Source: Escherichia phage vB_EcoM_DE16
Length of the DNA: 64,000 bases
Sequence record: OP595145.1
Direction: 5' to 3' (one strand)
A model generated the notes under the pieces. It made no database searches. It saw nothing but the letters and a program-made list of their open reading frames with translations, and was not told the origin of the DNA. Below, piece after piece: positions 451-55,414 of this stretch (positions within the stretch are counted from its first letter, which is position 1; each line of letters opens with the position of its first letter). The translations under genes and the position numbers were made by a program.

Positions 451-479
451 TTGACAAAACAACAAATATCCTGTAGACT
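451..479 (+). promoter_or_regulatory. sigma70-like promoter, TTGACA-N17-TAGACT
   Basis: Consensus -35 hexamer, 17-nt spacer, TAnnnT -10, about 35 nt upstream of the 516 ORF; coordinates approximate. Confidence 0.4.
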
Positions 480-515
480 AAGATTTATGGGATATCTGTT
501 TTTAAGAGGTTTCAA

Positions 516-995
516 ATGGAACTCAATAAAGATACACTGTGGGAACTCTTCAAAACCTTCGCTGGTTTTAAAGAGAATTCTGAATCCCAACAAGATTCTA
601 TACCATCTCAAAAACCTGAAACTTTAGTCAAACAAAATAAATTTGACGAAGAAAAGATGCAGGTTATTGAGGTCTTGTATTGTCCACCTGAAGAAGACGA
701 TCTCCACGGAGAGCGCATGTCTGATTTGGAAATCAGGAAGATGGTTGACAACTTCAATGAGAATATTACCAACATTAGTGGTAATCTTGGTCACATGAAG
801 AACACCGATAAGTTTTCTCCAATTAAAGCTTGGGTAAATGAAGTCGATTGTTACATTGGTGACGAACTCGTTGTGGAAGGAACTCCCCTCGTTAAAATCC
901 AATTCAACGACCCTGAATTATATCAAGCTCGTAAAGACGGCGTTCTTAAAGGTTTGAGTATAGGCGCAATGGGCGTTAAAGTCAAGAAGGACTAA
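516..995 (+). CDS. head assembly protein (possible prohead protease or scaffold-associated)
   Basis: 159 aa; RBS GAGG before ATG; position between putative portal fragment and scaffold-like gene; function inferred from gene order only. Confidence 0.4.
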   Translation: MELNKDTLWELFKTFAGFKENSESQQDSIPSQKPETLVKQNKFDEEKMQVIEVLYCPPEEDDLHGERMSDLEIRKMVDNFNENITNISGNLGHMKNTDKFSPIKAWVNEVDCYIGDELVVEGTPLVKIQFNDPELYQARKDGVLKGLSIGAMGVKVKKD

Positions 996-997
996 TC

Positions 998-2113
998 GTG
1001 GCAAATACATATTTAACTAACGTAGACTTTTCAGGAAAAGCTACGGAAGAGTCACTAGGTGCTCATATTGCTTACACTTTTGATTTTCAAGGTGGAGCGG
1101 CATCTGGTTACAATACCCCCCTTTTATTTAAGTCAGACGGATCTCCAGACATAACTTTTGAAAAGTTAGAAGCTCTCACTAAAATGGGAGAAGATGTTAC
1201 AGAGTTACGTAAAAGCTATATTCAACAAGTGATGGATCGCATTTCTGAAAAAGTGCGTGAAAAATTTGAAGCTGGTTGGGATTGGGTTTACGTTATTGAT
1301 GCTGACTTCGATGCGAACGTTGCAATTTTCTGTTCAGATAACGGTATGTTCTCTGTTGGCTTTAAAGTTGACGGACTGAATGTTGAAGTTGAAGAGGTTG
1401 CTAAACCTGTTGTTCGTGTTACTGATTATCAAGTTGTTGATGGTGATGTAATGATCTCCATTGATTTCTTTGAGGACGTTTTAGACGATGCTTTGAGTAA
1501 TCTCGTTAAGAGTTCCTTGAAACAAAGTCAAGTTAAAGATTATTTAGTGAAAGCTCACGCTAAAGCTAATACAAACTCTGTGGATGCAGAGGCTAACCCC
1601 GCAGGTGATAAATCTGCAAACACAACTGGAATCAATAAAGGAGAAACCCCTTTGGAAAATATCAACAAAGAAGAATTCCTGAAATCTGCTGAATTCCAAG
1701 AACTGATGAAAGCACAGATTGCTGAAGCTGTAGAAAAAGCAGCCGCAGATGCACGTGCAGCCGCAGAACTTGAAGCACAGGAAAAAATCGCTAAGGCAGA
1801 ACAGGAAGCAGAAGAACTTCGTAAAGCTGAACAAGCTCGTATCGAAGAAGAATATACAACTGTTGTTAAATCCTATTCTTTCGTAGAAGAAGACAAAGTT
1901 GAAGCTCTCGTTAAATATCTGGTAGACAATAAAGATATCGCTGAAACTATCGTCAAAGCATTCGAAAAAGCACGTGCAGAAGTGGACGCAGTTAAGAAAG
2001 AATTTGGAACAGAACGTGGTGTTGACGTGATCAATACTCAACCTGTAGCTAAATCTTCTTCTGAACTGATTAGTCAGAAAGCTGCTGAACTTAAAAAAGC
2101 CCAGAAACAATAA
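998..2113 (+). CDS. scaffolding protein (putative)
   Basis: 371 aa, GTG start; C-terminal half is A/E/K-rich predicted coiled coil (AEAVEKAAADARAAAELEAQEKIAKAEQEAEELRKAEQ); located before decoration and capsid genes. Confidence 0.5.
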   Translation: MANTYLTNVDFSGKATEESLGAHIAYTFDFQGGAASGYNTPLLFKSDGSPDITFEKLEALTKMGEDVTELRKSYIQQVMDRISEKVREKFEAGWDWVYVIDADFDANVAIFCSDNGMFSVGFKVDGLNVEVEEVAKPVVRVTDYQVVDGDVMISIDFFEDVLDDALSNLVKSSLKQSQVKDYLVKAHAKANTNSVDAEANPAGDKSANTTGINKGETPLENINKEEFLKSAEFQELMKAQIAEAVEKAAADARAAAELEAQEKIAKAEQEAEELRKAEQARIEEEYTTVVKSYSFVEEDKVEALVKYLVDNKDIAETIVKAFEKARAEVDAVKKEFGTERGVDVINTQPVAKSSSELISQKAAELKKAQKQ

Positions 2114-2132
2114 TCTTAGGAGATTAAATTAA

Positions 2133-2531
2133 ATGGCTAAAGGAATTACTTTATCTAACTCTCGCCAGGAATTCGGACACCTGGTTCTGGGTGGAGTGTT
2201 TAGCTCTGACCTTGGACACTGTGTACGTGAAGTTAACCTGGTTAAAACAGCAACCATGAAAATTGGTTCTATCCTGAAAGCTGACAACACTGAAGCTGCT
2301 AAAGCTGAAGCTGCCGATGCTGCTAAAGTTCTGATTTGGACTGATGCTCTGTTCGGTATTGACGATGTAGCAGTAGGTGACACTTTCACCGCAGTTGTTG
2401 GCGTACGTGATCTTACTCTGAACCGCTTTGCAGTATACTACAAAGATGGCTCCCTGGTAGATGACGCTGGCGTAGCAGCACTGGAAACACATGATCTGAA
2501 ACTGACCGAAAAAGTCGTTTTCACTTCTTAA
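2133..2531 (+). CDS. head decoration protein (lambda gpD-like position)
   Basis: 132 aa; strong RBS AGGAGATTAA; directly precedes the major capsid gene as D precedes E in lambda. Confidence 0.45.
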   Translation: MAKGITLSNSRQEFGHLVLGGVFSSDLGHCVREVNLVKTATMKIGSILKADNTEAAKAEAADAAKVLIWTDALFGIDDVAVGDTFTAVVGVRDLTLNRFAVYYKDGSLVDDAGVAALETHDLKLTEKVVFTS

Positions 2532-2552
2532 TTTTAATAGGAGATTAATATA

Positions 2553-3554
2553 ATGCCAGCAGTAATTTTAGATCAGGTTGTAGATTTCAGCCCTATGATC
2601 GAACTTCAGGATTCCCCTGATACACTGATTGCCAGCCTGAATCTGTTCAGTGTTGACTATCATTCAACTACCGCTATTGAAATCGGTAAAGAAAAAGCTG
2701 AAGATGCTCTGATCTCCGCTCGTGAGCGTGGTGGTGAGCGTAACTTCCTGACCATGAAAAATCCAGAACTGAAAGCGTTCCGCATTCCGTTCTTCCCTCT
2801 GGATAAAAACATCAAAGCTCAAGATATCCAATCTTTCCGTAGCTTTGCAATGGCAGGAATCAATGACTCTCTGCGCACAGACGCTGAAGTTGTTAACCGC
2901 TATATGTCCCAGATTCTGCGTGACGTAGCAAAAACCAAAGAGAAAATCTTTGCAGAAGCAGTTATGGGTCGTGCCTATAACGGCGTAGGTGGTGCAGCTA
3001 ACTCTGCATACAACTGGTATACCGAATGGGGTGCTACCCAGAAATCTGTTGCTGTAGACTTTGCTTCTACCACTGTTTCTCCAGCAGCCACTATCGAACA
3101 AGAAGCTCGTGCTTACATCATCGATACTAAACAAGATGGCTCTACCGCTACCCGTATCGTAGCTCTGTGTTCTCGTGAGTTTTTCGCATCTCTGGTTAAC
3201 TCTCCATTTGTTCGCCAGGCATATCAGTATTTCCAGGGAACTCCTAACCTTCTGCGTGACCGCCTTAGCGGTAACATGGATGTTCAGGTGTTCGAATGGA
3301 ACGGTGTAACTTACATTGAAGATATCCACGGTAACATCCCTGCTGGTGAAGCATATGTTCTGCCTATGGGTATCGAAGGTATGTTCCAGGCGCACTACGC
3401 TCCTGCGGATACTCCAGAACTGGCTAACACCCAGGCTCGTGAACTGTATACCTTCATGATCAGCCAGCACCGCACTATTCAGCTTCAGTCTGAATTCTCG
3501 CTGCTCGCAGTTAACACCCGTCCAGAACTGGTAGTTAAACTGACTACGGCTTAA
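2553..3554 (+). CDS. major capsid protein (lambda gpE-like family)
   Basis: 333 aa; strong RBS AGGAGATTAA; followed by a hairpin terminator; size and order (scaffold, decoration, capsid) match the lambda E-type head module; family assigned by recognition, not by search. Confidence 0.75.
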   Translation: MPAVILDQVVDFSPMIELQDSPDTLIASLNLFSVDYHSTTAIEIGKEKAEDALISARERGGERNFLTMKNPELKAFRIPFFPLDKNIKAQDIQSFRSFAMAGINDSLRTDAEVVNRYMSQILRDVAKTKEKIFAEAVMGRAYNGVGGAANSAYNWYTEWGATQKSVAVDFASTTVSPAATIEQEARAYIIDTKQDGSTATRIVALCSREFFASLVNSPFVRQAYQYFQGTPNLLRDRLSGNMDVQVFEWNGVTYIEDIHGNIPAGEAYVLPMGIEGMFQAHYAPADTPELANTQARELYTFMISQHRTIQLQSEFSLLAVNTRPELVVKLTTA

Positions 3555-3574
3555 TAGAACTCTGTTAAGATTAG

Positions 3575-3606
3575 AGGCTCGTCCGTGATGGGCGAGCCTT
3601 TTCTGT
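3575..3606 (+). terminator. rho-independent terminator after capsid gene
   Basis: Stem AGGCTCG/CGAGCCT with 11-nt loop followed by TTTTCTGTTTT. Confidence 0.55.
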
Positions 3607-3639
3607 TTTACAATAAGAGTTTACAACGAGGAGATTGAT

Positions 3640-3984
3640 ATGTCAAACCCAGAATTGAAACGTTACTTTAGTTATCACGAAATGATTCGTGATTTCGAAT
3701 CGCTTTCACCACTGATCGATGCTGATAAAACATTAGTATCTGCGCCACCAATGTCTTTCTATCTGAAAGATGGTCGTATTGCATTAGGTGGAAACTTCAT
3801 TCACTTCCTCACGCGTTTGAGAGAAGAAACAGGTATTCTTGTGCATCCTTTTGCAAGTGAAGAACACATGGGTTACTATCTTGTAAGTTACGAAGACTAT
3901 GCACCTGTAAAAATCAAAGAAGAAGTTTTAAAAGTAGAAGCGGTAGACACTCCAGCTAAAAAACGTTCCCTTCGTAAAAAATAA
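3640..3984 (+). CDS. hypothetical protein (head completion / head-tail joining region)
   Basis: 114 aa; RBS GAGGAG; lysine-rich C-terminus; position after capsid gene. Confidence 0.45.
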   Translation: MSNPELKRYFSYHEMIRDFESLSPLIDADKTLVSAPPMSFYLKDGRIALGGNFIHFLTRLREETGILVHPFASEEHMGYYLVSYEDYAPVKIKEEVLKVEAVDTPAKKRSLRKK

Positions 3985-3993
3985 GGTGGGCTT

Positions 3994-4542: not shown

Positions 4543-5030
4543 TGGAAAGTGAGATCTTACCAGGTGACGATACAGATTGGGAAACCATTATCAAAAAGAT
4601 GATGGACCTTGAACAAGTTCAAATCGAAGCTGGTTTTTTAACAAACAAAAGGCATCCTGAATCAGATCTCACTATTCCTGCAATAGCAGCTATTCAACAA
4701 TATGGTAATGAAACAAATAACATACCTGCTCGTCCTTTTATAACAGATGGTGCTGTTATCTCACAGAACAATATCGCTAAAAAGATGAAGCAGGTTTTTG
4801 CAAATTACCTAATGAACAATGTTGGGTTGGCTGTTTTTGAGCCTATAGCGAGAGCCTCTAGAGAAGGAATAGCTCAAGCGATTGCAATGCAACGTTATCG
4901 TCCTTTATCTCCTGTGACAATTAAGATACGACAAGATAAAGGCAACTATTCTAATCATATCTTAATAGATACGGCACACATGATAAATGCAATCGAAACA
5001 AAAATCACAAAAAGCAAGTCTAAAAAATAA
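4542..5030 (+). CDS. hypothetical protein (possible head closure / neck protein)
   Basis: 162 aa; start overlaps upstream stop (ATGA). Confidence 0.4.
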   Translation: MESEILPGDDTDWETIIKKMMDLEQVQIEAGFLTNKRHPESDLTIPAIAAIQQYGNETNNIPARPFITDGAVISQNNIAKKMKQVFANYLMNNVGLAVFEPIARASREGIAQAIAMQRYRPLSPVTIKIRQDKGNYSNHILIDTAHMINAIETKITKSKSKK

Positions 5031-5031
5031 C

Positions 5032-5075: not shown

Positions 5076-5492
5076 GTGTTACTAGATCAATTTACTCTCC
5101 TTGATCTAACTGAATACCAAGGTCGTAGACGAGTCTACAAAGAGGCCGTTGGTTCAGTTATTGCTAACTTAGAAAGTAGTGTAGAATATGAACCATTTAC
5201 TATTGAAGCGGCAAGCTTACAACCGATATCTGGTAAAACACTGAATGCACTACCCGAAGGTTACAGATCTAAGGCTCAATATAGTTTCTGGACTAAAACA
5301 GAAATGAAGGGGTTACAACAAGGAACAGAACAGTTATCAGATCAAATATTGATAGATGGTAAATGGTATTCTGTTTATTCCCTTAAAGATTGGACCAGAA
5401 CATCTTTCTTAGTCCATCATCACTGTGTTGCGATATTAGACGATCAAAACAACTCCTGGTCTTATGGAACAGAAGGAGGAAACTTTGGCTAA
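5076..5492 (+). CDS. hypothetical protein (neck / tail completion region)
   Basis: Track ORF begins at 5043; GTG at 5076 is preferred because AAGGAG lies 7 nt upstream and the promoter -10 overlaps 5055-5060. Confidence 0.45.
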   Translation: MLLDQFTLLDLTEYQGRRRVYKEAVGSVIANLESSVEYEPFTIEAASLQPISGKTLNALPEGYRSKAQYSFWTKTEMKGLQQGTEQLSDQILIDGKWYSVYSLKDWTRTSFLVHHHCVAILDDQNNSWSYGTEGGNFG

Positions 5493-6157: not shown

Positions 6158-7531
6158 ATGGCAACTTTTCGTGAAAAGGTAGCAACCGTAACTTTACTGT
6201 ATGGTGCTACATCAATTCGTGAAACCCAGTTCGATATTCCCCTGATCCTTACAGGTCAGAATGTAACTGGCGAAGCGATTCAATATTACTCTTCTTCCGA
6301 TGCACTTTTGGAAGCAGGTTATGGATTAAATGATCCAGCGTATATTATGGCAGTCAAACTGTTTAACGGTTTGTTCCCACCAGATCAAGTCATGGTTGGT
6401 AAGCGTGAAGTTACAAACTTTACTCTAACTCCAATCGTAGAAGATAGTGCAACTTACACAATTACCATCAAAAATGGTACCAAGAAAAAAGAATTTAAAT
6501 TCATTGCTGATGACACTGCAACTGCACAAGAGATTGTAGTTGGTCTGACTGAAATGATCAATGCAGATCTTGTTTATGGCCCACTGTTTACAGTAGCTAA
6601 CAACGGCGCTGCAATGACTTTCACTCCAGTAGAAGGTAAGTTTGGTTCTATTGACAGCACAGGTTTCACTCAAGAAACTGTCTATGCTAATGCTATTACG
6701 GAAGATATCGCTGCTCTGCATGATATTGATAGTAGCTGGTTCTGGACCCTTTCAGATTCCCATGAAACAGAAGATGTTCTAGCTTTGGCTGCATGGGTAG
6801 AAGAGAATGATAAAGTTTACTTCTTCTCTAGCTCTGAACCTGGAATTAAAACGAAAGCAGAAGATAACGTTCTGGAACGACTGAATGACCTCGGCTATAA
6901 TAACACTTGCTTTGCTTTGTGGATGACCGATGCAGATTCTGTATTCCCAGAAGCAGCAGTTGTTGGTGCAATCTGTTCTCGTCAACCTGGTTTAACTACT
7001 CTTCACGGTAAAACACTGGTAGGTGTAGAGATCGAGAAACTGGATCAGACTTCGGAAAACAATATTGTTCAACAGAACGGTAACATCTATCGTAAAGAGC
7101 ATGGAACTCTGTTCTATCGTGATGGATTGATGGTTAGCGGTTTCTTTGTTGACTATGTTGTTCATGCTTTGTGGTTTAAAGCTCGCACAGAAGAATCACT
7201 GTTTACACTGTTTAAACAACAGTCTATGCTGGGTGGTGGTGTTCGTGCTACTTCAAACGGTCTGGCTTTGATTCGACAAGCTGTTCTGGCTAACCCGATC
7301 CAAGTAGGTATCCTCAACGGTTCCATCGCTAATGAAGTTGTTACTTCTGAAGAGACTGGTTTGCGTGTCGATCTGAAACCTATTGTTTATATTCCTTCTC
7401 GTGCCGATATGACCGATGCGCAAATCAATGCTCGTCTGGTTGATGGGATGAAGATTGAATATGTTTACGCTGGCTTCTTCCATTACGTTAAAGTTCAGGT
7501 CAACGTCCTGACTAACCGTACTGCAAACTAA
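6158..7531 (+). CDS. tail sheath protein
   Basis: 457 aa; RBS AGGAG; immediately precedes a 159-aa tube-like gene; size and order typical of contractile tails. Confidence 0.65.
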   Translation: MATFREKVATVTLLYGATSIRETQFDIPLILTGQNVTGEAIQYYSSSDALLEAGYGLNDPAYIMAVKLFNGLFPPDQVMVGKREVTNFTLTPIVEDSATYTITIKNGTKKKEFKFIADDTATAQEIVVGLTEMINADLVYGPLFTVANNGAAMTFTPVEGKFGSIDSTGFTQETVYANAITEDIAALHDIDSSWFWTLSDSHETEDVLALAAWVEENDKVYFFSSSEPGIKTKAEDNVLERLNDLGYNNTCFALWMTDADSVFPEAAVVGAICSRQPGLTTLHGKTLVGVEIEKLDQTSENNIVQQNGNIYRKEHGTLFYRDGLMVSGFFVDYVVHALWFKARTEESLFTLFKQQSMLGGGVRATSNGLALIRQAVLANPIQVGILNGSIANEVVTSEETGLRVDLKPIVYIPSRADMTDAQINARLVDGMKIEYVYAGFFHYVKVQVNVLTNRTAN

Positions 7532-7577: not shown

Positions 7578-8057
7578 ATGGATAAAATGCTTACTGGCGT
7601 AATGGCCTACGACCCATCTCAAGTTATCCTTTCATTAGGTGGTTGGGAACCGTGGGGTTTTGCGGCTGATACTAAAATCGTTATTGCTAAATCTAACGAT
7701 ATTATCAACCCTTATTCAGGGACTGATGGTGACGTTTCACTAGCTTTGAGTCGTAACCGTTTGGGAACACTCACAATGTCTTTGCAACGCACATCTCCAG
7801 CTAACGAAGTACTTGCAACATATGCACAAACAATGTATTCTACTCGTCAAGTAGCATTCAGTGTTTACTTGGAAGACCCACGTGGCTATTACATTAGCAC
7901 GATTGGATGGATTCAAAGTCAGCCTGAAGATACTATTGGCGAAATGATTACAGAGAACCAATGGGTTATTGGTCTTAAAGATGCAAGCCTTCTGCGTAAT
8001 GAAGTTGGTGTAGGTTTGAGCACCCTTAACTCAATCTCTGCTCTGACAATTCAATAA
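7578..8057 (+). CDS. tail tube protein
   Basis: 159 aa; follows sheath; followed by a strong terminator. Confidence 0.6.
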   Translation: MDKMLTGVMAYDPSQVILSLGGWEPWGFAADTKIVIAKSNDIINPYSGTDGDVSLALSRNRLGTLTMSLQRTSPANEVLATYAQTMYSTRQVAFSVYLEDPRGYYISTIGWIQSQPEDTIGEMITENQWVIGLKDASLLRNEVGVGLSTLNSISALTIQ

Positions 8058-8063
8058 TAAATA

Positions 8064-8085
8064 AAGGGCAGAAATGCCCTTTTTA
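8064..8085 (+). terminator. rho-independent terminator after tube gene
   Basis: AAGGGCA-GAAA-TGCCCTT followed by TTTT. Confidence 0.65.
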
Positions 8086-8585: not shown

Positions 8586-8851
8586 CACCTGCGATTGAAC
8601 ATGCTATCGACACAGCAACGAAAACCCTTACTTTGAAGTGGTATGAGGTTATTCTTTGCAAAGTCGTTAAAGATACCTCGGAAACACTGAAAACATTGGA
8701 TAACTACGGTGTAGATTATCTTTTAAAACTATATGAGTATTTAACATACGAAGAGTATGTTGAAGCCATGTATGTTAAAGACACTTCAATAAAGAGAAAA
8801 CATCAAAACCAGACAAATAAAATGTCAGATTTGTTTAAGAAACTTGTTTAA
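8103..8851 (+). CDS. tail assembly chaperone, predicted -1 frameshift-extended form (GT/E' analogue)
   Basis: The -1 frame is open from 8492 to the stop at 8849-8851; slip at 8516-8522 would fuse about 139 aa of frame 0 to about 110 aa of the -1 frame. Confidence 0.45.
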
Positions 8852-10864: not shown

Positions 10865-10890
10865 ATACCTCGCTTCGGCGGGGTTTTTTC
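10865..10890 (+). terminator. rho-independent terminator after tape measure gene
   Basis: CCTCGC-TTCG-GCGGGG stem-loop followed by TTTTTT. Confidence 0.6.
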
Positions 10891-10986: not shown

Positions 10987-11688
10987 ATGGCAGCAATGAC
11001 TCCACAACAGTCGGTGAGAGCCGTCTATAAGGCAGAACAGGAAATCAACTCTACCGAGAATAAAAATACCTCGGCATCTACTGTAAAGGGTGATAATGGT
11101 TTCTGCATTTTAGCAAGTGTTTATAATAGTTCAAGTGATCAATACATTCAAAACTTTAAAGCAATTACTTTCGATTCAGTCCCTGAAATAGGTGTAACTC
11201 GTGAGGCAGATGTTACAAGTTTTCCAGTAGAATCAGGATCGGATGTAAGTGACCACGTTCAAATAAAAAACAACAGATTTAAACTTTCAGGTATAATTAC
11301 CGAAACACCAATTCGGCTTATGCGAGATCAATTATACAGTGCAGGTGTAAATGGTGCTAGGATTTCTCAAGCAATAGAGTATCTAGATCAAATATTTGAG
11401 TCAAGACAACCAATAGTTCTTTTGACAGAACACAGAACTTTTGAAAATGTTATTCTCAAAGGTTATTCGTATGATTATAAATCTGAATTTGCTATGCAAT
11501 TTGATTTAGAGTTTGAACAAATCCGTCTCGTTTCTAAGGCCACTACTAACGCTATTGCTGTAAAAACAGCACCAAATAAGTCAACTGGTGGTGATGTGAA
11601 AGGTCAAGTTGCTTCGAATGGTCCTAAGTCAGATATTACAGTAAGAACTGCTGAAGCTACTAATACCCCAACAAACAACGGAGGTTAA
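10987..11688 (+). CDS. hypothetical tail/baseplate protein
   Basis: 233 aa ORF with RBS; first gene after tape measure. Confidence 0.4.
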   Translation: MAAMTPQQSVRAVYKAEQEINSTENKNTSASTVKGDNGFCILASVYNSSSDQYIQNFKAITFDSVPEIGVTREADVTSFPVESGSDVSDHVQIKNNRFKLSGIITETPIRLMRDQLYSAGVNGARISQAIEYLDQIFESRQPIVLLTEHRTFENVILKGYSYDYKSEFAMQFDLEFEQIRLVSKATTNAIAVKTAPNKSTGGDVKGQVASNGPKSDITVRTAEATNTPTNNGG

Positions 11689-20005: not shown

Positions 20006-21946
20006 ATGTCAACTACAATTACTAATTTACCCGAAACATCAAAAGTTAATGATTCTGATTACCTGGTTTTAGACCAACCTGATAAGACTGTTAAAAGCAC
20101 AGTTTCCAACTTTCTTACTGACACTGGGGTGGTTTTAGCCACCCAGTTGAAAGATACAGATGGAGCAGATTTAATACAATCCTCAAATGGTAATACTGTT
20201 CAGGAAGAGTTGAATAACAATCTTCTTAATGATCGTGAACAGTGGCGTCGTAGTCTTGCTGAGGCTGGCTTAACGCTTGTTGATGGTAGTTTTGAAGACG
20301 GTGCTACAGCAAATAGTAAAACTGATGCCGTTTGGTATAGGACAGGAGGTCAGTGTTATGTGTGGGATGGTGTCGGGGTTAAAAATGTACCTGCTAAATC
20401 AACTCCAACATCAACTGGCGGGGAAGGGGTTGATAAGTGGCTTAATGTTAGTAATGTTACACTTAGGAGTGGGATAGTAGCCTCTATAAATCCAGTAGAT
20501 AATCTAAGCGCACTTAAATCGTCCCTTGCATCAAAGAAGATAACCACATTAACTGAGGCTGTAACCACTACGGATGTAATTATTGTTCCTTCCTACAGTG
20601 AGTTAAGAGGCATTGGTCATAATATAGGAATCATTGCACAACAACCGAAGCCGCAAAAAGTAATATCAAAATCTGGAAATAAAAAATATGATTTTGTTAA
20701 TACAAATAAACCACTTCAGTCGAGAGATGCAATATTAGCTATAGATCCTGCGTGGATTGACGGAGTATACCCCCAACATACAATAATCGATGGGGTATCC
20801 TTACTTGGTGATCCATCCAGTAAAAATGATGTCGGGCTATTTATTTTTCAGGGTGGAAATTTCACCATCAGGAACATGCAGATAGCGAACTGCCTAGACG
20901 GGATTCTTAGCAGTGGCTGCTGGATTAGTCGCTTTGAGAACGTGAGTGCGCTTGGTGGCAGTCTGGCTTTTAATGGTGGCACAAGCCATGTATTAATTGG
21001 GTGCGCTGCCTGGGCTACCGCTGAGAATGACGGAGCATTTTATTTTAATGACGTAACATACAGCAGCATGGTTGGATGCACATCTGACCACTCGGAAGCT
21101 CCAGCTAACTTCTTCAGAGATGGCGTGCAGATGACCATGGTTAACTGCGGAAGCGAGTTCGCTACCTCACCGGGAGGTGGTGTTGGTAGCATGATTGCGT
21201 CAGCAGGTGCGGGCAATAAAATCACGGTACTTGGATATAAAGGGGTTCCAAAGGCTGGGCAGACTGACCCGCTAATTAGTATTTCAGAAAACAGTACGAT
21301 GCACATTATCAATTGGTACAGCAATGAGCCAGACTATCCGAATAGTTTAGACGTCAGTGTAAATGGTGACGGAAGCACTATTATTGTTGAAGATAGTATA
21401 TTCTCTGGAGGCCGAACCCTGCCGGTTGTACAGTTCAGGGGCAACCAACCGAACAGTAAAGTTATTGTTAAGAGCGGCGGTAATGAATATGTATATACCT
21501 CACCTCTGGGGGGTGGTATTGTAAGTTCACCAGAACGTAAGTACAGAGGTACAACGTATACACCGAAGCTACTGGTTAATGGCGCGAATGTTGCCGAGCT
21601 AACATATTCCACTGCTATAGGTAGTGCAGTAAAGAATGGTAATCAACTAACAGTAAACTTTAATTTAGTTATATCAGCCGCTCCTTCATCCCCATCTCAG
21701 GGTACTATTACACTGGATTTACTTTCTACTGAGACGGGGTACGTTCCTGAATATGAATCGTGTGGTGTGCTAGTAGTTTCTAATGGTGTGGGTTTCAGTG
21801 GGGTGGCATGCGTAGTGTCGCCCAATGAGACTATGGTTTATTTAAAAAGCAGTGATGGGGTAAATATGCAACTACAGCATATAAAGGCAGGAACGCAAAT
21901 CAGAGGAGCGGTGACATTTAAAGTAAAAAGATCTGGTTGGTCATGA
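20006..21946 (+). CDS. tailspike / tail fiber with parallel beta-helix-like region (possible depolymerase)
   Basis: 646 aa; RBS AGGAG; central region rich in G/N/S/T/V with repetitive short beta-strand pattern. Confidence 0.45.
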   Translation: MSTTITNLPETSKVNDSDYLVLDQPDKTVKSTVSNFLTDTGVVLATQLKDTDGADLIQSSNGNTVQEELNNNLLNDREQWRRSLAEAGLTLVDGSFEDGATANSKTDAVWYRTGGQCYVWDGVGVKNVPAKSTPTSTGGEGVDKWLNVSNVTLRSGIVASINPVDNLSALKSSLASKKITTLTEAVTTTDVIIVPSYSELRGIGHNIGIIAQQPKPQKVISKSGNKKYDFVNTNKPLQSRDAILAIDPAWIDGVYPQHTIIDGVSLLGDPSSKNDVGLFIFQGGNFTIRNMQIANCLDGILSSGCWISRFENVSALGGSLAFNGGTSHVLIGCAAWATAENDGAFYFNDVTYSSMVGCTSDHSEAPANFFRDGVQMTMVNCGSEFATSPGGGVGSMIASAGAGNKITVLGYKGVPKAGQTDPLISISENSTMHIINWYSNEPDYPNSLDVSVNGDGSTIIVEDSIFSGGRTLPVVQFRGNQPNSKVIVKSGGNEYVYTSPLGGGIVSSPERKYRGTTYTPKLLVNGANVAELTYSTAIGSAVKNGNQLTVNFNLVISAAPSSPSQGTITLDLLSTETGYVPEYESCGVLVVSNGVGFSGVACVVSPNETMVYLKSSDGVNMQLQHIKAGTQIRGAVTFKVKRSGWS

Positions 21947-22112
21947 TTATATGCTAACAGGATGCTGAAGATATGGGAGTGAGTTTTCCCTTTCTTAATC
22001 TGAACTGTATATGGCATCAGTGGCGTGGATGCCCATGGATGGCACCACGCTAACTGGTGTTAATAATCTTGATTTGACTTTCTACTATTAATAGAAAAAC
22101 AAAGAGGTTTAT

Positions 22113-35611: not shown

Positions 35612-36004
35612 TTACATTAATTTTGCACAGAAAGAACGGAGTCTTTCCATATCATCTTGCTCTAACAGGTATTTACCTTTACCTATTCCAACTCCAATTT
35701 CACCATTAGGAAAATGAACTATTTGCACTGGGAAACCTCCGAGTTTAATTGTGGCAGCTTTGCCTTCTTCGTCTATAACGTTTCGGATTGTATCTTGCAG
35801 TGAAATGAATTCTTTGTTTGTAACGGTGGTTTCAATTATTTCAGATGTTTCAACACGAGCAGTTAGCTTCTTGTTTCCACCTTGAATAACCAAAATTTGA
35901 AAATAAAAAGAGTTGTCAAGACCTACAACATTTTTCTCAACTAGTGTCAAACTGGTATAGTTTCCATAAACAGTTTCAACAGCTATCTTAGAACGTTCAG
36001 TCAT
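35612..36004 (-). CDS. hypothetical protein
   Basis: 130 aa ORF in the minus-strand operon. Confidence 0.4.
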   Translation of the reverse strand: MTERSKIAVETVYGNYTSLTLVEKNVVGLDNSFYFQILVIQGGNKKLTARVETSEIIETTVTNKEFISLQDTIRNVIDEEGKAATIKLGGFPVQIVHFPNGEIGVGIGKGKYLLEQDDMERLRSFCAKLM

Positions 36005-40673: not shown

Positions 40674-41105
40674 TTAGTTGTTAGCGAACTCAATAGTGAG
40701 GTCCACTTTACCATCATCAGAAATAACCATGTTTTTGGTATTTTTAAAGATGATATCTACTTTACCTTCACTTACACGACAGAATGCAACACCATCTGCA
40801 ACTTTATCAATATAATATTTGTAAGAAAGAATACCCACTTTACTACGACCAGCACCTTTTGTGAAAGAAGGGCTTACATCGAAACGGAAACCTTTAGAAG
40901 AAACAACACGGTAAGAACGTCCAGTTGGGATATGTTCAATAACAGAGACATTGTTCTCAACAACTTTTACAGCAAACTCTTCAGGATGATCCTCAACAAT
41001 CATGTGCGGAATGGCAAATGCCAACGCTTGTTTGTGTTTAATAACACCAGCACCCAGAGCACCAGCAGCTTTAACTTTTGCATTCAGATCGATTGTCATA
41101 CGCAT
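40674..41105 (-). CDS. hypothetical protein
   Basis: 143 aa; RBS GGAGA; sits behind a near-consensus promoter. Confidence 0.45.
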   Translation of the reverse strand: MRMTIDLNAKVKAAGALGAGVIKHKQALAFAIPHMIVEDHPEEFAVKVVENNVSVIEHIPTGRSYRVVSSKGFRFDVSPSFTKGAGRSKVGILSYKYYIDKVADGVAFCRVSEGKVDIIFKNTKNMVISDDGKVDLTIEFANN

Positions 41106-43267: not shown

Positions 43268-44211
43268 TATAGCTCCTCAAATAAAAGTCTACGACGCTCA
43301 TTCAACACATCAATGTGATAATGAGTCCTGACATACTTAGCTAATGCTAATCCTTTCTCCATGCAAACATCGGGAGCACTTAATAAGTATTCCGTAATAT
43401 CTTTCCACTCGGAAGGTGTTTCAGCAAAGAATAACAGATCTTTAAACTCTTGTGTATGATAATTCTCACGAGGAGAACAAATCAAAGGTAAACCCTTAGC
43501 ACCTGCCTCAAGAATTTTAAGATTGCTTTTTGCATTATTAAACACGTTATCAATCAATGGCGCAAGACTGACTTGATGACCATCGTAAGATTCCATGTAG
43601 TTGGCATATGGTCTTACACCTTCATAAACACAAGTTGGTGCTACATTTTCTCTGATTACAGACCATTCACGACTACTTAAAACTTCAGAATCCCTACGAA
43701 AACCACATATTGTAAGATCTTTACCAAAATCGGGCAAGATAGCCAAATCTTGTTTATGTGTTTCACTTCCAGCCCAGACTAATGGAGTTTTGGAGTAGCG
43801 ATCACGGGTCAACACAAATTGACCTTCATCGTAAGGAAGTCCATTAGGGATTATGTGCACATTATCATTGTATTGTGAAAGTTCAACTTGCAAGGCAGGT
43901 GTCGTAGTTGTAACAAGGTCACTGTGCTCTAAAAACCATTTTAAATGTTCACGAATACCTGATTCAAAAATACCTTCTAACATGTGTCCTTTTGGAATAA
44001 CTAAAGAGTCATCCAAATCCATAACCATTTTAAAGCCTAGGTTTTTAAGGGCTAAAAAGCCCTCTTTACCTTTTGTTGGCACTCCGTTAAAAACGAAAAC
44101 GTTGTGTTTAGGTTGTGAAGAGAACTGCCTTGAGTAAGGCAGCACTACCCTATGGAAATCGCAGACACTATAATTGATTCCGTTACGATTGTCAAGAATT
44201 ATTTGTCCCAT
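43267..44211 (-). CDS. glycosyltransferase-like protein (GT-B fold type), paralogue 1
   Basis: 314 aa; paralogous to the 44219 gene; C-terminal NAKSNLKILEAGAKGLPLICS resembles the GT-B donor-binding region. Confidence 0.4.
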   Translation of the reverse strand: MGQIILDNRNGINYSVCDFHRVVLPYSRQFSSQPKHNVFVFNGVPTKGKEGFLALKNLGFKMVMDLDDSLVIPKGHMLEGIFESGIREHLKWFLEHSDLVTTTTPALQVELSQYNDNVHIIPNGLPYDEGQFVLTRDRYSKTPLVWAGSETHKQDLAILPDFGKDLTICGFRRDSEVLSSREWSVIRENVAPTCVYEGVRPYANYMESYDGHQVSLAPLIDNVFNNAKSNLKILEAGAKGLPLICSPRENYHTQEFKDLLFFAETPSEWKDITEYLLSAPDVCMEKGLALAKYVRTHYHIDVLNERRRLLFEEL

Positions 44212-46827: not shown

Positions 46828-47111
46828 CAGTGAATCTCCCCTAAAATGTTGTTTTGAGACATTACTGCGGAGCATTCTACAGCATCATGAGTCCTTGCAA
46901 AACGCTCCCACAACACAGCATCTACTTTAAGAACCATACAAGGATAAATACTGTCGTTGATCATGTCAATGCTATATTTATCTACATCCTTTTCATCTTC
47001 CATAAACAAAGTAGCGTATGCTTCTAAATGCTTACGGGTGTAGTATACATCCTCCTCGGTAAGACCGACAACCAGGTAACTTGCTACAACAACAGTATTA
47101 TCTTCTTGCAT
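46827..47111 (-). CDS. hypothetical protein
   Basis: Start re-assigned to ATG (MQEDN) preceded by AAGGGGAG; 94 aa. Confidence 0.4.
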   Translation of the reverse strand: MQEDNTVVVASYLVVGLTEEDVYYTRKHLEAYATLFMEDEKDVDKYSIDMINDSIYPCMVLKVDAVLWERFARTHDAVECSAVMSQNNILGEIH

Positions 47112-47112: not shown

Positions 47113-47634
47113 TTAACTCCCCTTTGGTAGATAGAAACCATGCACTTTATCTCGATAAACAAGACGCATATCACGTTCCCAGTGTGTCCTTATATTCCGT
47201 TTCTTGAAGTATAGAGCACCTTTAGTAACATCTAAAACAGACCGCAATTCAGGAAAATGTTTCTCTAAATAAAGTAAACGCTCCGCTATTGCTTTTGCTT
47301 CCTGCCATTTATCTTTTTCTGTTACGTTAAAAGTTTTCGCATATGAGAATTGCCCTTTCTGGAACAAAACTCCTCTGACTGTGTTAGGGAAGTAGGTATC
47401 ATTTCTTCTGTTGATTACCACATTCCCAACGGCATTCATTCCTTTTTTACCCAGACCGCGACCTTCTGCGTAAATTGCACAAGCTAATAGAATTTTATCA
47501 TTATATTGCTTTGTACATTTGTGAACTACTTTAGCGGTTTTTACGTTTGCAGCTTCGGCTTTCGCCACAACAGGTGTAAATGTAAAAGCAGTTAAGGATA
47601 GTAACGCAACTGTTACAAAGTTTTTTATCAGCAA
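47113..47634 (-). CDS. secreted cell wall hydrolase, SleB / Hydrolase_2 family (possible endolysin)
   Basis: 173 aa; N-terminal signal peptide (LLSLTAFTFTPVVAKAEA); motifs YAEGRG, NVVINRR, FQKGQFS; TTG start after GGAGG. Confidence 0.6.
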   Translation of the reverse strand: MLIKNFVTVALLSLTAFTFTPVVAKAEAANVKTAKVVHKCTKQYNDKILLACAIYAEGRGLGKKGMNAVGNVVINRRNDTYFPNTVRGVLFQKGQFSYAKTFNVTEKDKWQEAKAIAERLLYLEKHFPELRSVLDVTKGALYFKKRNIRTHWERDMRLVYRDKVHGFYLPKGS

Positions 47635-48351: not shown

Positions 48352-48621
48352 TTATTTAAGTGTAATACCAGTTACAGTCAATTCTACTTCCAAAAGCTTA
48401 GATGTGTTTTGGATTGATACTAATTGTGCATGATGGTTTAGTTCTACAGCAGAATAATCATTCTCCCCATCATCTACTTTTAAATAAACAATAACTTCAC
48501 TAAGGTCTAAACCATTTTCGTCAAATGCAGTTTCATAGACGAAAGTATCTCCTACATCCAAATCTTTAATGGTAAGGCATCGTTTATTTACTTTTTGCTC
48601 ATCAATTTCGAAGTTTAACAC
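48352..48621 (-). CDS. small TerD-adjacent protein, paralogue A
   Basis: 89 aa; paralogous to the 49643 gene (shared DLxxGxTF and GLD motifs and ITLK end). Confidence 0.45.
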   Translation of the reverse strand: MLNFEIDEQKVNKRCLTIKDLDVGDTFVYETAFDENGLDLSEVIVYLKVDDGENDYSAVELNHHAQLVSIQNTSKLLEVELTVTGITLK

Positions 48622-48850
48622 TTCTTCCTCCTAATGTTATCTCCGGTTTGTATATACGAAGAATTATAGCATTTTCATTTTCTTTGTCAACCCATTCTTC
48701 ATAATCGGGCCATACATGAATCTCTACTCTATTCGCAATATCTTCCATCCGCACAGTCCCAATGAAATACTCTTTGAGACTGCGCATAATGAAAGCTTCT
48801 CTCTCGCGCCAATAATTTTCTACGACTTGAGAGGCAAGCTCGTCGATCAT
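48602..48850 (-). CDS. hypothetical protein
   Basis: 82 aa ORF between the vWA and paralogue A genes. Confidence 0.35.
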   Translation of the reverse strand: MIDELASQVVENYWREREAFIMRSLKEYFIGTVRMEDIANRVEIHVWPDYEEWVDKENENAIILRIYKPEITLGGRSVKLRN

Positions 48851-52739: not shown

Positions 52740-52742
52740 AAC

Positions 52743-53336
52743 TTACACCTTAAAAGCGAAATGTGTGGTCGTGGCTTCAAAATCAGGGCCAGATAAACTT
52801 GCACTGAAATCTGAAATATTTGTAATTAAAAAGCTTTTATGCATACCTAACACAGCCACGCTTTCAATATCTTCTACTAACATTTCAATCATGTTAGAAA
52901 CATGGCTGAACGTATAGTTTTGTTTTTTGATGGTGTAGAAAGAAAGACTCCCACCTGCTGTATAAGATACCTCTTCAAAATCTTTAATCGTATATTGTGT
53001 GCCATCAGTAAAGAAAATGGTAGCTTTATTAGTAGCACGTTTCTTGTTTTTTGGTCCTTTTTTACGTTTACTGCGAGTAGGCAAACCATTTGGAAATACC
53101 GTAGCTACAAATTCTTCAGGAGAAACCTCCTTACCGAAATCATAACCGTAAGAAACAGCGTCTATAAACTCGTCGTCTTCATTTTTAAAATAATGAAAAT
53201 AGGGCCAATTTGAGAGATTATCGAGCATCTTGTGCTCATCCACAGCAGAGAACGTATCCCTCAAAGCACGTGTGATTTGCAAAGCATTAGGCAAACTTTT
53301 AACACCTGTAATGGAAGTACGAATAGAAATTGTCAT
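52743..53336 (-). CDS. hypothetical protein
   Basis: 197 aa; basic KRKKGPKNKKR patch. Confidence 0.4.
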   Translation of the reverse strand: MTISIRTSITGVKSLPNALQITRALRDTFSAVDEHKMLDNLSNWPYFHYFKNEDDEFIDAVSYGYDFGKEVSPEEFVATVFPNGLPTRSKRKKGPKNKKRATNKATIFFTDGTQYTIKDFEEVSYTAGGSLSFYTIKKQNYTFSHVSNMIEMLVEDIESVAVLGMHKSFLITNISDFSASLSGPDFEATTTHFAFKV

Positions 53337-53350
53337 TGTTTTTCTCCTTA

Positions 53351-53788
53351 TTAACGTCGCTTGCTACGAGATGAACTCTTTTTACTTAAAGGGCTATTGT
53401 AAGATTTACGAGTTGTATAGCTACTATTTGTTTTAAAAGTTTGTCTCGGCTTTTCATAAGTTTTTATCTCTTGTTTAGGCTTACCATAAAAATTAGTTTT
53501 CGGTTTAGGTGTATTATAATGCTTATTAATAATCGTTCTGTTATCGTTATAATCTCCACTGCTACGATTACTACCGCCACTCATCATATGCCCTAACAAC
53601 ATACCTGTAGCAAACTCACCAACACCGCTACTACTAGAACCGCCACCATTGTTGATAATAGTTGTATCTCCGTCAGATCCTTGTTGAGCGTATTGTTGAG
53701 GAGGTTGTTGGTATTGTGCAGGATTTGTTTCATCCTCGCAAGCTGTTAAAAAGATACAACCAATTAAAATCAGGGCTAGTTTTTTCAT
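53351..53788 (-). CDS. lipoprotein (signal peptidase II substrate), low-complexity
   Basis: Start re-assigned to ATG (MKKLALILIGCIFLTAC) after GAGGAAAG; lipobox LTAC; Q/G/S-rich mature region. Confidence 0.5.
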   Translation of the reverse strand: MKKLALILIGCIFLTACEDETNPAQYQQPPQQYAQQGSDGDTTIINNGGGSSSSGVGEFATGMLLGHMMSGGSNRSSGDYNDNRTIINKHYNTPKPKTNFYGKPKQEIKTYEKPRQTFKTNSSYTTRKSYNSPLSKKSSSRSKRR

Positions 53789-53877
53789 ATTTGCTTTCCT
53801 CGTTTTGGCTATTAATACATCTGTGTTTGAAATCTCCAGAGAAGCAATAAAGTTGCTCTCCATCTCGGTATAAACTC

Positions 53878-53906
53878 ACTTTACTGCCGTTGATTATGCT
53901 TGTCAA
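53878..53906 (-). promoter_or_regulatory. sigma70-like promoter, TTGACA-N17-TAAAGT
   Basis: Consensus -35 with 17-nt spacer upstream of the lipoprotein gene. Confidence 0.35.
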
Positions 53907-53971
53907 TACAAAAATTACAACAAACAACCCTATTGCAAAACAGATATTTTCAAACACAACCAACAAGTATT

Positions 53972-54322
53972 TCATTTTAAAAATACCTCATCATCAGTTT
54001 CATTATCCCAGAAGAACAAATCCCAACCACTTGGATCATTCCATTTGGCTGCTGGAGAAGTCCATATTTGCTCAATATCAATATTCAAAACTTCACCGTT
54101 TCGTTTTGAAACAGCTTTAGTTAATTCCCAACGGGATACAGGCTCCACTTCCCCTGAACCACTCCCACAACAAGCTACAACATTAGGAGGCAAATTAATT
54201 GGATCTTTGGTCACAATCATAACGCTTACCCCAGGGTAAACTTTTGAAAGATAATCTGAAATATAATCCACATCACCAGATAAATCCCAAACAAGTTCTT
54301 GAATTTCATCAAAATTATTCAT
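53972..54322 (-). CDS. hypothetical protein
   Basis: 116 aa; RBS GGAGG. Confidence 0.4.
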   Translation of the reverse strand: MNNFDEIQELVWDLSGDVDYISDYLSKVYPGVSVMIVTKDPINLPPNVVACCGSGSGEVEPVSRWELTKAVSKRNGEVLNIDIEQIWTSPAAKWNDPSGWDLFFWDNETDDEVFLK

Positions 54323-54364
54323 AAGTCTCTCCTATAAAATAGCCTCCCGAAGGAGGCTCATCTA

Positions 54365-55339
54365 TTAAACAGCAGCTTCTTCTTTTTCAGGGAAGATAAA
54401 GCTTGCAATAACACCAAGAGCTAATGTGCCTAGAACAATCATCAGACTTACGTTAGGGGAAATATCATGCGGGAGGAATGACCACTTGGCATGAAGTGTT
54501 TCACCGAACGGGTGATACATAAGTTTAGCACCAACAAACACCAGAACCACAGCAACAGCTTTCTCTAAGTGAACCAGATATTTCACAGCTACACTTAACA
54601 CAAAGAAAAGTGCACGTAAACCAAGAACAGCCATCAGCATTGCAGAATAAACTAGCAGAGGTTCTTGTGTCACCCCGATCACAGCCGGAACTGAATCAAA
54701 AGAGAAGACAATATCTGTAAGCTCAATAACAAACACACAAAGAAGAGCAGGAGTTGCATATTTAATACCATTCTTAATGGTAATGAACTTTTCACCATCT
54801 AGTGCATTGTGCACAGGCAGAACTTTACCTACTAAACGAACAGCCCAATGCTTAGAGTAATCAATATCCTCTTCTTCGTCACCACCTTTGATGATAGCCA
54901 CGGCAGACCAAGCTACAATCAAACCGAACAACACTTGGACCGACCAATGAAGGTTAAACAAAGCGGTCCCTGCTGCAACAAAAATACCTCGGAAGACAAT
55001 GGCTCCTGCAATCCCCCAAAGTAAAATCTTATGTTGGAGATGTGTGCTCTTAATTCCAAAGCTTGCAAAAATTGCCATGAACACCATCAGGTTATCTACA
55101 GAAAGACTCTTTTCCAACACATAACCACTTAGGAAAAGCGCGGCAAACTCTTTACCATGTTCTACCCAAATGAATGCGTAATATCCTAAAGCTAAAGCAA
55201 TCCAAAAAACAGACCAAAGCAAAGCAGATTTAATTCCAATTTCTTTATTCTCTTTATGACCAAAGAAATCGATACCAATAGACAATGCCAAAATACCAAC
55301 TAAAACAACTACATCAATAATTGGGAAACCGAGTTGCAT
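54365..55339 (-). CDS. terC: TerC-family integral membrane protein
   Basis: 324 aa, multiple TM helices; conserved YVLEKSLSVDN and FSFDSVPAV motifs. Confidence 0.7.
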   Translation of the reverse strand: MQLGFPIIDVVVLVGILALSIGIDFFGHKENKEIGIKSALLWSVFWIALALGYYAFIWVEHGKEFAALFLSGYVLEKSLSVDNLMVFMAIFASFGIKSTHLQHKILLWGIAGAIVFRGIFVAAGTALFNLHWSVQVLFGLIVAWSAVAIIKGGDEEEDIDYSKHWAVRLVGKVLPVHNALDGEKFITIKNGIKYATPALLCVFVIELTDIVFSFDSVPAVIGVTQEPLLVYSAMLMAVLGLRALFFVLSVAVKYLVHLEKAVAVVLVFVGAKLMYHPFGETLHAKWSFLPHDISPNVSLMIVLGTLALGVIASFIFPEKEEAAV

Positions 55340-55386
55340 TCTTTTCTCCTCTCTTTGCGGGGAACTATTCCCCGCTTCATGTGATA

Positions 55387-55414
55387 TATCTTACTCTTTT
55401 TAAGAACTATGTCA
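55387..55414 (-). promoter_or_regulatory. sigma70-like promoter, TTGACA-N16-TAAGAT, upstream of terC
   Basis: Hexamers with 16-nt spacer; followed by a 5'-UTR hairpin GCGGGGA/TCCCCGC and RBS GAGGAG. Confidence 0.4.

Follow-up and report, generated by a model that had tools for sequence, protein, structure and literature searches.

Are the head and tail genes of this phage transcribed by the unmodified host RNA polymerase, from promoters of the same kind as its other genes, or does a phage factor recognize a related motif ahead of them? The question arises from the window, a stretch of 64,000 nt from Escherichia phage vB_EcoM_DE16 (OP595145.1), in which the first-pass annotation had listed seven pairs of TTGACA-like and TAnnnT hexamers separated by 16-18 nt. 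The phage is a phAPEC8-like myovirus (Phapecoctavirus, Stephanstirmvirinae), the window being ~99% identical to the Phapecoctavirus genomes phAPEC8 and UP17. Enrichment, orientation, and phylogenetic footprinting support the sigma70-type identity of the sites, including those ahead of the head, tail, and baseplate operons. Judging from the sequence, they are very likely genuine promoters of the host RNA polymerase with sigma70 (RpoD), which together with hairpin terminators would split both arms of the window into operons.

Candidate promoters in the window

All seven pairs read as described and are co-oriented with their downstream genes (7/7), and two further sites, P36013 and P48663, were added to the list (Table 1). 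The -35 box is exactly TTGACA at P451, P10898, P36013, P41139, P48663, P53878, and P55388, and TTGCA(A/T) at P47667 and P5032. The -10 box is TAnnnT, with A in position 2 and T in position 6, in 9 of 9 sites, and all nine spacers are 16, 17, or 18 bp long. An extended -10 element (TGn) is present at P10898, P36013, P47667, and P48663; P451 and P5032 were rejected as extended -10 promoters, as their TG directly adjoins the hexamer and is out of register by one base. The -10 box TATACT, noted at the outset as common to three sites, is that of P5032, P41139, and P47667, and G+C-rich hairpins precede P10898, P41139, and P47667. The intergenic position claimed for all seven sites holds in general, the exception being P53878, which lies inside a conserved small membrane-protein ORF (53730-53975) that is unannotated in phAPEC8. 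At each site, we infer that the E. coli sigma70 holoenzyme would initiate ~7 nt 3' of the -10 box.

The phAPEC8 record (GenBank JX561091) lists six host dependent promoters, none of them in the structural arm. P41139, as a "putative host dependent promoter determined with MEME", and P55388 are already annotated there, and P451, P5032, P10898, P36013, P47667, P48663, and P53878 are not. A search of the accessible literature for transcriptome, start-site, or expression data on Phapecoctavirus, Stephanstirmvirinae, Vequintavirinae, and rV5-like phages returned nothing relevant.

Table 1. Candidate promoters, hairpins, and associated genes of the window (promoter notation: -35 box, spacer length, TGn where present, -10 box; PWM score)
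Feature	Position	Strand	Description
Candidate promoter P451	451..479	+	TTGACA-17-TAGACT; 13.4 bits
XkdF-type protease gene	516-995	+	first gene 3' of P451
Major capsid protein gene	2553-3554	+	in head operon of P451, with protease, scaffold, and decoration protein
Strong intrinsic terminator	3573..3601	+	after major capsid gene; 13 pairs, 7 G-C; annotated in phAPEC8
Candidate promoter P5032	5032..5060	+	TTGCAT-17-TATACT; 8.4 bits, best of the sub-threshold gaps
Neck/minor head protein gene	5076-5492	+	first gene 3' of P5032
Tail sheath gene	6158-7531	+	3' of P5032
Tail tube gene	7578-8057	+	3' of P5032
Terminator	8063..8082	+	after tail tube gene; annotated in phAPEC8; identical hairpin in relatives
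Intrinsic terminator	10867..10884	+	after tape measure gene, directly 5' of P10898; 7 pairs, 5 G-C, then TTTTTT
Candidate promoter P10898	10898..10927	+	TTGACA-18-TGT-TACAAT, extended -10; 14.8 bits
Leader hairpin of P10898	10937-10956	+	
Candidate promoter P36013	36013..36042	-	TTGACA-18-TGA-TAGGAT; 13.3 bits; added here
Candidate promoter P41139	41139..41167	-	TTGACA-17-TATACT; 14.0 bits
Hairpin preceding P41139	41184-41199	-	
Endolysin gene	47113-47634	-	3' of P47667
Candidate promoter P47667	47667..47695	-	TTGCAA-17-TGT-TATACT; 11.2 bits
Hairpin preceding P47667	47696-47715	-	
Candidate promoter P48663	48663..48690	-	TTGACA-16-TGc-TATAAT, perfect consensus; 15.5 bits, top score of the window; added here
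Candidate promoter P53878	53878..53906	-	TTGACA-17-TAAAGT; 12.7 bits
TerC-family gene	54365-55339	-	3' of P55388
Leader hairpin GCGGGGAATAGTTCCCCGC	55357..55375	-	13-31 nt 3' of the P55388 -10 box
Candidate promoter P55388	55388..55415	-	TTGACA-16-TAAGAT; 11.2 bits

Enrichment over background and conservation in relatives

The simplest alternative is that the sites are functionless chance matches in A/T-rich intergenic DNA. The pattern TTGACA-N16-18-TAnnnT occurs 16 times in the window versus 4.0 +/- 1.9 times in shuffles, and 6 of the 16 matches fall into co-oriented intergenic DNA, which makes up ~3% of the window. With a sigma70 positional weight matrix (PWM) and a threshold of at least 11 bits, 7 co-oriented intergenic matches were found, whereas dinucleotide shuffles of the gaps lead one to expect 0.13; none of the 300 shuffles reached 7 matches, and the antisense strand of the same gaps contains no match above this threshold. 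A similar density inside coding regions, named in the first-pass annotation as an observation that would speak against promoters, was not seen: there are 3.4 PWM matches per kb in co-oriented gaps versus 0.26 (co-oriented) and 0.15 (antisense) in coding DNA, that is, the gaps are 13-23 times denser. Further, the gap scores are bimodal, with 7 gaps at 11.2 bits or more and 13 gaps at 8.4 bits or less. In the complete phAPEC8 genome, 39 co-oriented intergenic sites were counted versus 3 antisense intergenic ones.

Two observations favor chance. A loose scan, accepting 9 of 12 consensus positions over the whole window, yields as many sites in shuffled sequence and is thus uninformative; only the near-consensus class stands out from the background. 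Coding DNA also contains several equally good matches, most of them not conserved. Relatives lack the coding-region matches at 46941, 11863, 32584, 8227, 18652, and 957, which were treated as chance, and the one at 44167 is conserved, but inseparably from protein constraint. A separate reservation about the promoter reading is that some coding-region matches exceed the shuffle expectation too (10 versus about 4), with conservation that is likewise inseparable from protein constraint.

In relatives at 67-81% identity, the spacer sequence has diverged, but the hexamers, TGn, and the precise length of the spacer are retained. The A and T positions of the -10 box persist in orthologues even where its inner bases differ, and TGn is conserved in all orthologues of P10898, P36013, and P47667. 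Such conservation with diverged spacers, seen in four or five genomes, and the gap shuffles effectively refute the chance reading, which we regard as extremely improbable.

Predicted promoters of the structural arm

Host-type promoters had been claimed ahead of head and tail genes, and enrichment, orientation, and footprinting bear this out for P451, P5032, and P10898. They are the only such promoters in the 34.6 kb structural arm, most gaps of which contain hairpins only; the description of the promoters as occurring "throughout" is slightly overstated for the late region.

An A/T-rich UP-like tract (423-448) lies just 5' of P451. Together they would drive transcription of the protease, scaffold, decoration protein, and major capsid genes up to the terminator at 3573, at whose position a hairpin is kept in all relatives compared. 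P451 is conserved in phiWec188, phi92, and KP13-26. At the same junction, FBKp34 and KP13-16 have a different promoter, TTGACA-17-TAAAAT, annotated as such in FBKp34, and the Vequintavirinae 4MG and pEp_SNUABM_01 have TTGCAA-17-TGT-TAAAAT. A sigma70-type promoter thus lies between the portal and protease genes even among Vequintavirinae with a protease of about 37% identity. In four genomes, a 40-nt stretch spanning the -10 box and +1 of P451 shows almost no variation and is far more conserved than its flanks; a long hairpin or inverted repeat at 461-500 encloses the -10 box and +1 (z about -5). This hairpin might terminate or process transcripts reading through from the portal operon, or it could be an operator gating P451.

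P5032 is the weakest candidate. Its -10 box lies 3 nt 5' of the Shine-Dalgarno sequence AAGGAG, and transcription is predicted to start at this sequence or immediately before it; the leader would be about 9 nt long. Its orthologues in phiWec188, phi92, and KP13-26 keep TTGCA(A/T)-17-TATACT, and FBKp34 has TTGATT-18-TGc-TAAAAT at this junction. The predicted transcript would cover the neck, sheath, and tube genes and stop at the terminator at 8063.

Transcription from P10898 would start directly after the tape-measure terminator and proceed into the baseplate and tail-fibre operon, which begins at 10987. The TTGACA-18-TGn-TAnnAT pattern is kept in phiWec188, phi92, and KP13-26 despite unrelated spacer sequences.

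Predicted promoters of the minus-strand arm

The minus-strand arm would likewise be divided into operons by P55388, P53878, P48663, P47667 (endolysin), P41139 (methylase and DNA polymerase), and P36013. P55388 retains TTGAC(A/T)-16-TAnnnT in phi92 and KP13-26, where the leader hairpin GCGGGGAATAGTTCCCCGC has compensatory variants. This hairpin is the element labelled "PHIRE promoter" in the phAPEC8 record, and about 15 more copies are found in the early region of that genome. On the phAPEC8 genome, an early-type promoter class was defined by a 16-nt spacer followed by the leader hairpin, and P55388 is a member of it. An Rfam scan of the window revealed no known RNA family at the leaders.

The ortholog of P53878 in KP13-26 is TTGACA-17-TAGTAT, at 65% local identity. 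PHROG matches to the protein encoded 3' of this site begin at residue 22, and the true start of the gene is probably at 53788. P48663 lies inside the 3' end of ORF 48602-48850, 41 nt 5' of the start of 48352-48621, and phiWec188 retains TTGACA-16-TGt-TATAAT at 76% local identity. For P47667, phiWec188, phi92, and KP13-26 retain the pattern TTGCAA-17-TGT-TAnAnT, and the hairpin 5' of it is kept with compensatory changes in relatives. P41139 is followed by 40674-41105 and then by the Dam methylase and DNA polymerase genes; its position is only loosely conserved in relatives, which differ in gene content, and is not conserved in phi92. Finally, 8 nt separate the end of the P36013 -10 box from the ATG of 35612-36004, which would make the mRNA almost leaderless; phiWec188, phi92, and KP13-26 retain TTGAC(A/T)-18-TGn-TAnnAT at this site.

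Search for a late promoter class

Bulk late transcription might instead start from unrecognized phage-specific late promoters, T4-like or other, with the sigma70 sites of the structural arm being minor or early-only. Support for this comes from rV5, for which a MEME motif, TggTAaAAtA, was described 5' of late genes and compared by the authors to the late consensus of T4 (PMC3606486). However, this motif reads as an extended -10 box (TGnTAAAAT), TTGAC(A/T) is also present at 17 nt in two of its eight copies, and in the form TGnTAnAAT it is not enriched by itself in the window. Nothing equivalent was seen to the late promoters of T4, which consist of TATAAATA without a -35 box and are read with gp55, gp33, and gp45: the window contains 7 copies of TATAAATA versus 4.9 expected, none of them in a gap 5' of a late gene, and homologues of gp33, gp45, and gp55 are absent from rV5 (PMC3606486). 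The remaining late-arm gaps hold hairpins only; comparison across five genomes revealed no shared conserved block in them, only hairpins with compensatory changes. We therefore consider such promoters very unlikely.

The -35 variant TTGCAA, seen at two late-function promoters, was rejected as a late-specific element, since early-region promoters of phAPEC8 with the early leader hairpin have it too. TGn and TATACT are found in the early region too, and no feature sets the late-function promoters apart. These observations, with the lack of enrichment of TATAAATA and TGnTAnAAT, argue against the suggestion of the first-pass annotation that a phage factor recognizes a distinct, related motif. Since late- and early-function promoters share their architecture, late timing does not appear to be set by a separate late promoter class, and it would come from something acting on the sigma70 promoters or the template: a regulator, an anti-sigma protein, read-through, or replication.

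A phage factor could also act at the sigma70-like sites themselves; the sites would then be real, but the late genes would need an activator, a sigma appropriator, or an anti-sigma switch there, the unmodified host polymerase being insufficient. The near-invariant 40 nt and the hairpin at P451 suggest an added control layer, the early-type promoters with their 16-nt spacer and leader hairpin form a separate architectural class, and modification of the host polymerase is conceivable because rV5 encodes an Srd-like anti-sigma candidate (PMC3606486). Against this, the late-function promoters have no distinguishing sequence feature, no regulator came to light in this analysis, and the near-consensus -35 box and UP-like tract of P451 predict activator-independent activity. 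We regard the need for such a factor as possible, though on the unlikely side.

The 461-500 hairpin at P451 and the leader hairpin repeated after early-type promoters with 16-nt spacers led us to consider whether RNA or DNA structures superimposed on ordinary sigma70 promoters, and not a distinct class of late promoters, determine late timing; this idea seems to us unlikely. The repeated leader hairpin could mark a co-regulated early regulon.

Discussion

The preferred reading, sigma70-type promoters in both arms, has parallels in other coliphages. In T5, the pre-early, early, and late promoters are reportedly all strong sigma70-type promoters read by the E. coli holoenzyme. T5 is a large virulent coliphage without a polymerase of its own, in which timing is achieved partly via two-step DNA entry and phage proteins; it is unrelated to the phage studied here. 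The early promoters of T4 are also of the sigma70 type with UP-like tracts, as at the sites described above.

A published precedent is rV5, a related large E. coli myovirus with sigma70-type promoters, in both cases predicted ones. Kropinski et al. (2013, PMC3606486) listed 33 TTGACA-N15-17-TATAAT-like promoters, which are spread genome-wide and also occur in the late arm; 11 have an extended -10 box. They concluded that polymerase reprogramming in the style of T4 may not occur. The related phage CB7 encodes no RNA polymerase (PMC7344957). rV5 differs in belonging to the Vequintavirinae and in that its portal and protease genes overlap, so that it lacks a P451 ortholog. The novelty of our finding is low, as the rV5 paper had already drawn this inference from evidence of the same kind; it is sound but ordinary and will not surprise a specialist in phage transcription.

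What is gained is annotation, in a genus whose phages are widely isolated for therapeutic and biocontrol use: seven conserved promoters are added, three of which define the head, tail, and baseplate operons, and the operon map of the window can now be tested. It also bears on a question already raised for rV5, namely how expression is ordered in a 150 kb virulent phage that has only sigma70-type promoters.

Promoter sites and gene layout

The window was assigned by megablast to Phapecoctavirus (Stephanstirmvirinae), showing 98.8-98.9% identity across 20 kb to many sequences, UP17 and phAPEC8 among them. Candidate promoters, named by window coordinate, are listed in the table with the two gene arms. 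All seven σ70-type sites reported in the first-pass annotation, including those before structural genes, were read directly as described, each with its downstream gene on the same strand, and the TATACT hexamer is indeed shared by P5032, P41139, and P47667. Several sites had also been said to follow hairpins directly: three of the seven are preceded by a G+C-rich hairpin, the one before P10898 being a canonical terminator. We add P36013, located in a 45-bp gap, and P48663, which lies within the 3' end of a small gene (ORF 48602-48850) and precedes the following one by 41 nt.

Candidate promoters (-35 hexamer, spacer in nt, optional extended -10, -10 hexamer) and gene arms of the window
Feature	Position	Strand	Site	Genes
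P451	451	+	TTGACA-17-TAGACT	predicted unit: protease through major capsid
P5032	5032	+	TTGCAT-17-TATACT	predicted unit: neck through tail tube
P10898	10898	+	TTGACA-18-TGT-TACAAT	predicted unit: baseplate and fibres
P36013 (added)	36013	-	TTGACA-18-TGA-TAGGAT	precedes two genes of unknown function
P41139	41139	-	TTGACA-17-TATACT	precedes methylase and DNA polymerase block
P47667	47667	-	TTGCAA-17-TGT-TATACT	precedes endolysin gene
P48663 (added)	48663-48690	-	TTGACA-16-TGc-TATAAT (perfect consensus, extended -10)	precedes small gene
P53878	53878	-	TTGACA-17-TAAAGT	precedes gene of unknown function
P55388	55388	-	TTGACA-16-TAAGAT	precedes TerC-family gene
Structural arm	1-34598	+		portal gene end, XkdF-type protease, scaffold, decoration protein, major capsid, neck, sheath, tube, chaperones, tape measure, baseplate, fibres
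Second arm	34663-64000	-		replication, nucleotide-metabolism, lysis, tellurite-resistance-like genes

Together with hairpin terminators at 3573, 8063, and 10867, the promoters would cut the structural arm into the units given in the table; the other late-arm gaps contain hairpins only, with no common conserved block. The predicted distance from the -10 hexamer to the start codon is 32-59 nt at most sites. P5032, at 15 nt, is predicted to give a leader of roughly 9 nt. For P36013, 8 nt separate the end of the -10 from the ATG of gene 35612-36004, and its transcript is predicted to be nearly leaderless. At the P36013 orthologue of phi92 and KP13-26, GAGG stands between the -10 and the ATG; as a ribosome-binding site it could be usable by read-through transcripts only.

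Several local features were noted in passing. The tail-fibre gene in 20006-22112 (+; 1941 bp, with 166 bp of gap behind it) differs from the endosialidase gene of about 2760 bp that occupies this position in phAPEC8 and phi92, as though the receptor-binding module had been exchanged. The apparent gap 8586-8632 (+), between two small genes 3' of the tail tube, aligns like coding sequence across relatives; rather than intergenic DNA, it is probably the part by which a frameshift extends the tail assembly chaperone. A small ORF at 53730-53975 (-), unannotated in phAPEC8, encodes a predicted membrane protein (MKYLLVVFENICFAIGLFVVIFVL...) and aligns to an annotated small gene of KP13-26; the gene downstream probably starts at 53788 (GAGGAA, then ATG) and not at 53863.

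Enrichment over chance

The window-wide search for TTGACA-N16-18-TAnnnT proposed in the first-pass annotation gave 16 matches versus 4.0 +/- 1.9 in shuffles. TTGACA alone is not over-represented (52 copies, about 58 expected), and all six of its copies in co-oriented intergenic DNA have a -10 at the right distance. Using a σ70 weight matrix, with hexamer frequencies based on the classic compilations and a cut-off of at least 11 bits, we found seven sites in co-oriented gaps versus 0.13 expected from dinucleotide shuffles of those gaps, none of 300 shuffles reaching seven; on the opposite strand of these gaps nothing scored that high. Co-oriented gaps contained 3.4 matches per kb, compared with 0.26 per kb in the co-oriented and 0.15 per kb in the antisense direction of coding DNA; thus the similar density inside genes that the first-pass annotation would have counted against the promoters was not observed. 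Gap scores are bimodal, with seven gaps at 11.2 bits or more and 13 at 8.4 bits or less. A loose 9-of-12 consensus scan showed no enrichment, and therefore only the near-consensus class carries the signal.

Conservation in related phages

Syntenic regions were compared gap by gap with phiWec188 (about 81% identity), phi92 (75%), KP13-26 (73%), and FBKp34 (67%). Four genomes have in common TTGACA-17-TAGACT at P451, TTGAC(A/T)-18-TGn-TAnnAT at P36013, and TTGCAA-17-TGT-TAnAnT at P47667, where the upstream hairpin is likewise retained with compensatory changes; three share TTGAC(A/T)-16-TAnnnT at P55388. P10898 reads TTGACA-18-TGn-TAnnAT in all four Stephanstirmvirinae having the gap, with unrelated spacers. 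P48663 is retained in phiWec188 at 76% local identity, and P53878 in KP13-26 as TTGACA-17-TAGTAT. At the P451 junction FBKp34 and KP13-16 have TTGACA-17-TAAAAT, annotated as a promoter in the FBKp34 record, and the Vequintavirinae 4MG and pEp_SNUABM_01, at a protease identity of only about 37%, carry TTGCAA-17-TGT-TAAAAT between portal and protease. Constant hexamers and spacing amid diverging spacers are the signature expected of functional promoters. P5032 is retained as TTGCA(A/T)-17-TATACT, but its spacer is partly conserved too, and its footprint is therefore less specific.

In KP13-26 a 12-bp inverted repeat (TTGTACATCAGT ... ACTGATGTACAA; locus L006, 11840-11891) brackets the whole P10898 orthologue. 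At 3618-3646 (-) lies an antisense TTGACA-17-TAAACT that overlaps gene 3640's start codon and is directed into the major capsid gene from its 3' end. It is retained as TTGACA-17-TAnAnT in phiWec188 and KP13-26, with differing -10 sequences, and is absent from phi92; its -35 may be conserved only through the gene start ATGTCAA.

The P451 hairpin and late transcription

The P451 -10 hexamer and predicted start are enclosed by a long A/U-rich hairpin at 461-500 (+), whose stem of about 16 pairs (17 in relatives) is capped by a 6-nt loop and followed by TTTTT (predicted energy -14 to -18 kcal/mol; z -3.4 to -5.5). In FBKp34 the -10 is also surrounded by an inverted repeat, but a different one, TAATACT-N8-AGTATTA. 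The 461-500 hairpin hints at additional control or at promoter-terminator overlap: it could terminate or process transcripts of the portal operon at a site that overlaps the head promoter, or serve as an operator. That late promoters require a phage factor seems to us possible but less likely than not, and we entertain it mainly because this 40-nt block, spanning the P451 -10 and +1 and folding with a 17-bp stem and a T run (z about -5), is almost invariant in the window, phiWec188, phi92, and KP13-26.

No separate late signal was found among the candidate motifs. TATAAATA is unenriched in the window, with no copies in gaps upstream of late genes, and TGnTAnAAT by itself is unenriched there as well. 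The TTGCAA -35 variant, under which we group P5032, P47667, and the Vequintavirinae portal-protease promoter, was rejected as late-specific since it is present at early-region promoters too. The "late" MEME motif of rV5, TggTAaAAtA, reported in eight copies (PMC3606486), reads as an extended -10, and two of the eight also have TTGAC(A/T) at 17 nt.

Early-region promoters and leader hairpins

The phAPEC8 genome, assembled from record segments and scanned with the same matrix, contains 39 co-oriented intergenic sites versus three antisense ones. The sites reach their highest density in the early region (143.6-147.7 kb and 0-5 kb), where spacers are mostly 16 nt. Most early-region sites are followed after 6-10 nt by a hairpin of the type GGGCGGCAATGGTGCCGC or GCGGGGAATAGTTCCCC, labeled in GenBank "putative promoter determined with PHIRE"; more plausibly, these hairpins are leader structures of the σ70 promoters just upstream. 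P55388, with its 16-nt spacer and leader hairpin, belongs to this early class.

The hairpin after P55388 (55357-55375, -) is one instance of a recurrent element that the phAPEC8 early region (loci L008 and L009) contains some 15 times, always starting 6-10 nt downstream of a σ70-type -10, usually with a 16-nt spacer. Its stems differ among copies and phages, and because these changes are compensatory, they suggest an RNA structure.

Relation to known phage promoters

T5 is the classic example of a virulent coliphage in which every temporal class is served by σ70 promoters. For rV5, 33 σ70-like promoters are listed across the genome, gp33, gp45, and gp55 homologues are noted as absent and an Srd-like protein as present, and the promoter distribution led the authors to suggest that the host polymerase might not undergo T4-like modification (PMC3606486). 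For Certrevirus, comparable promoters were reported chiefly from early and middle regions, with no gene for a phage RNA polymerase identified (PMC7344957). Two of the present sites, 41139 and 55388, are already marked as host-dependent promoters in the phAPEC8 record. Thus the first-pass observation is correct and its interpretation, host polymerase throughout or a phage factor with a related motif, reasonable; neither is new to the literature on this phage group. Literature searches found neither mapped transcription starts nor expression measurements for these phages, so promoter function is predicted from sequence. The new results are seven more well-supported sites in Phapecoctavirus and a predicted operon map of the late arm.
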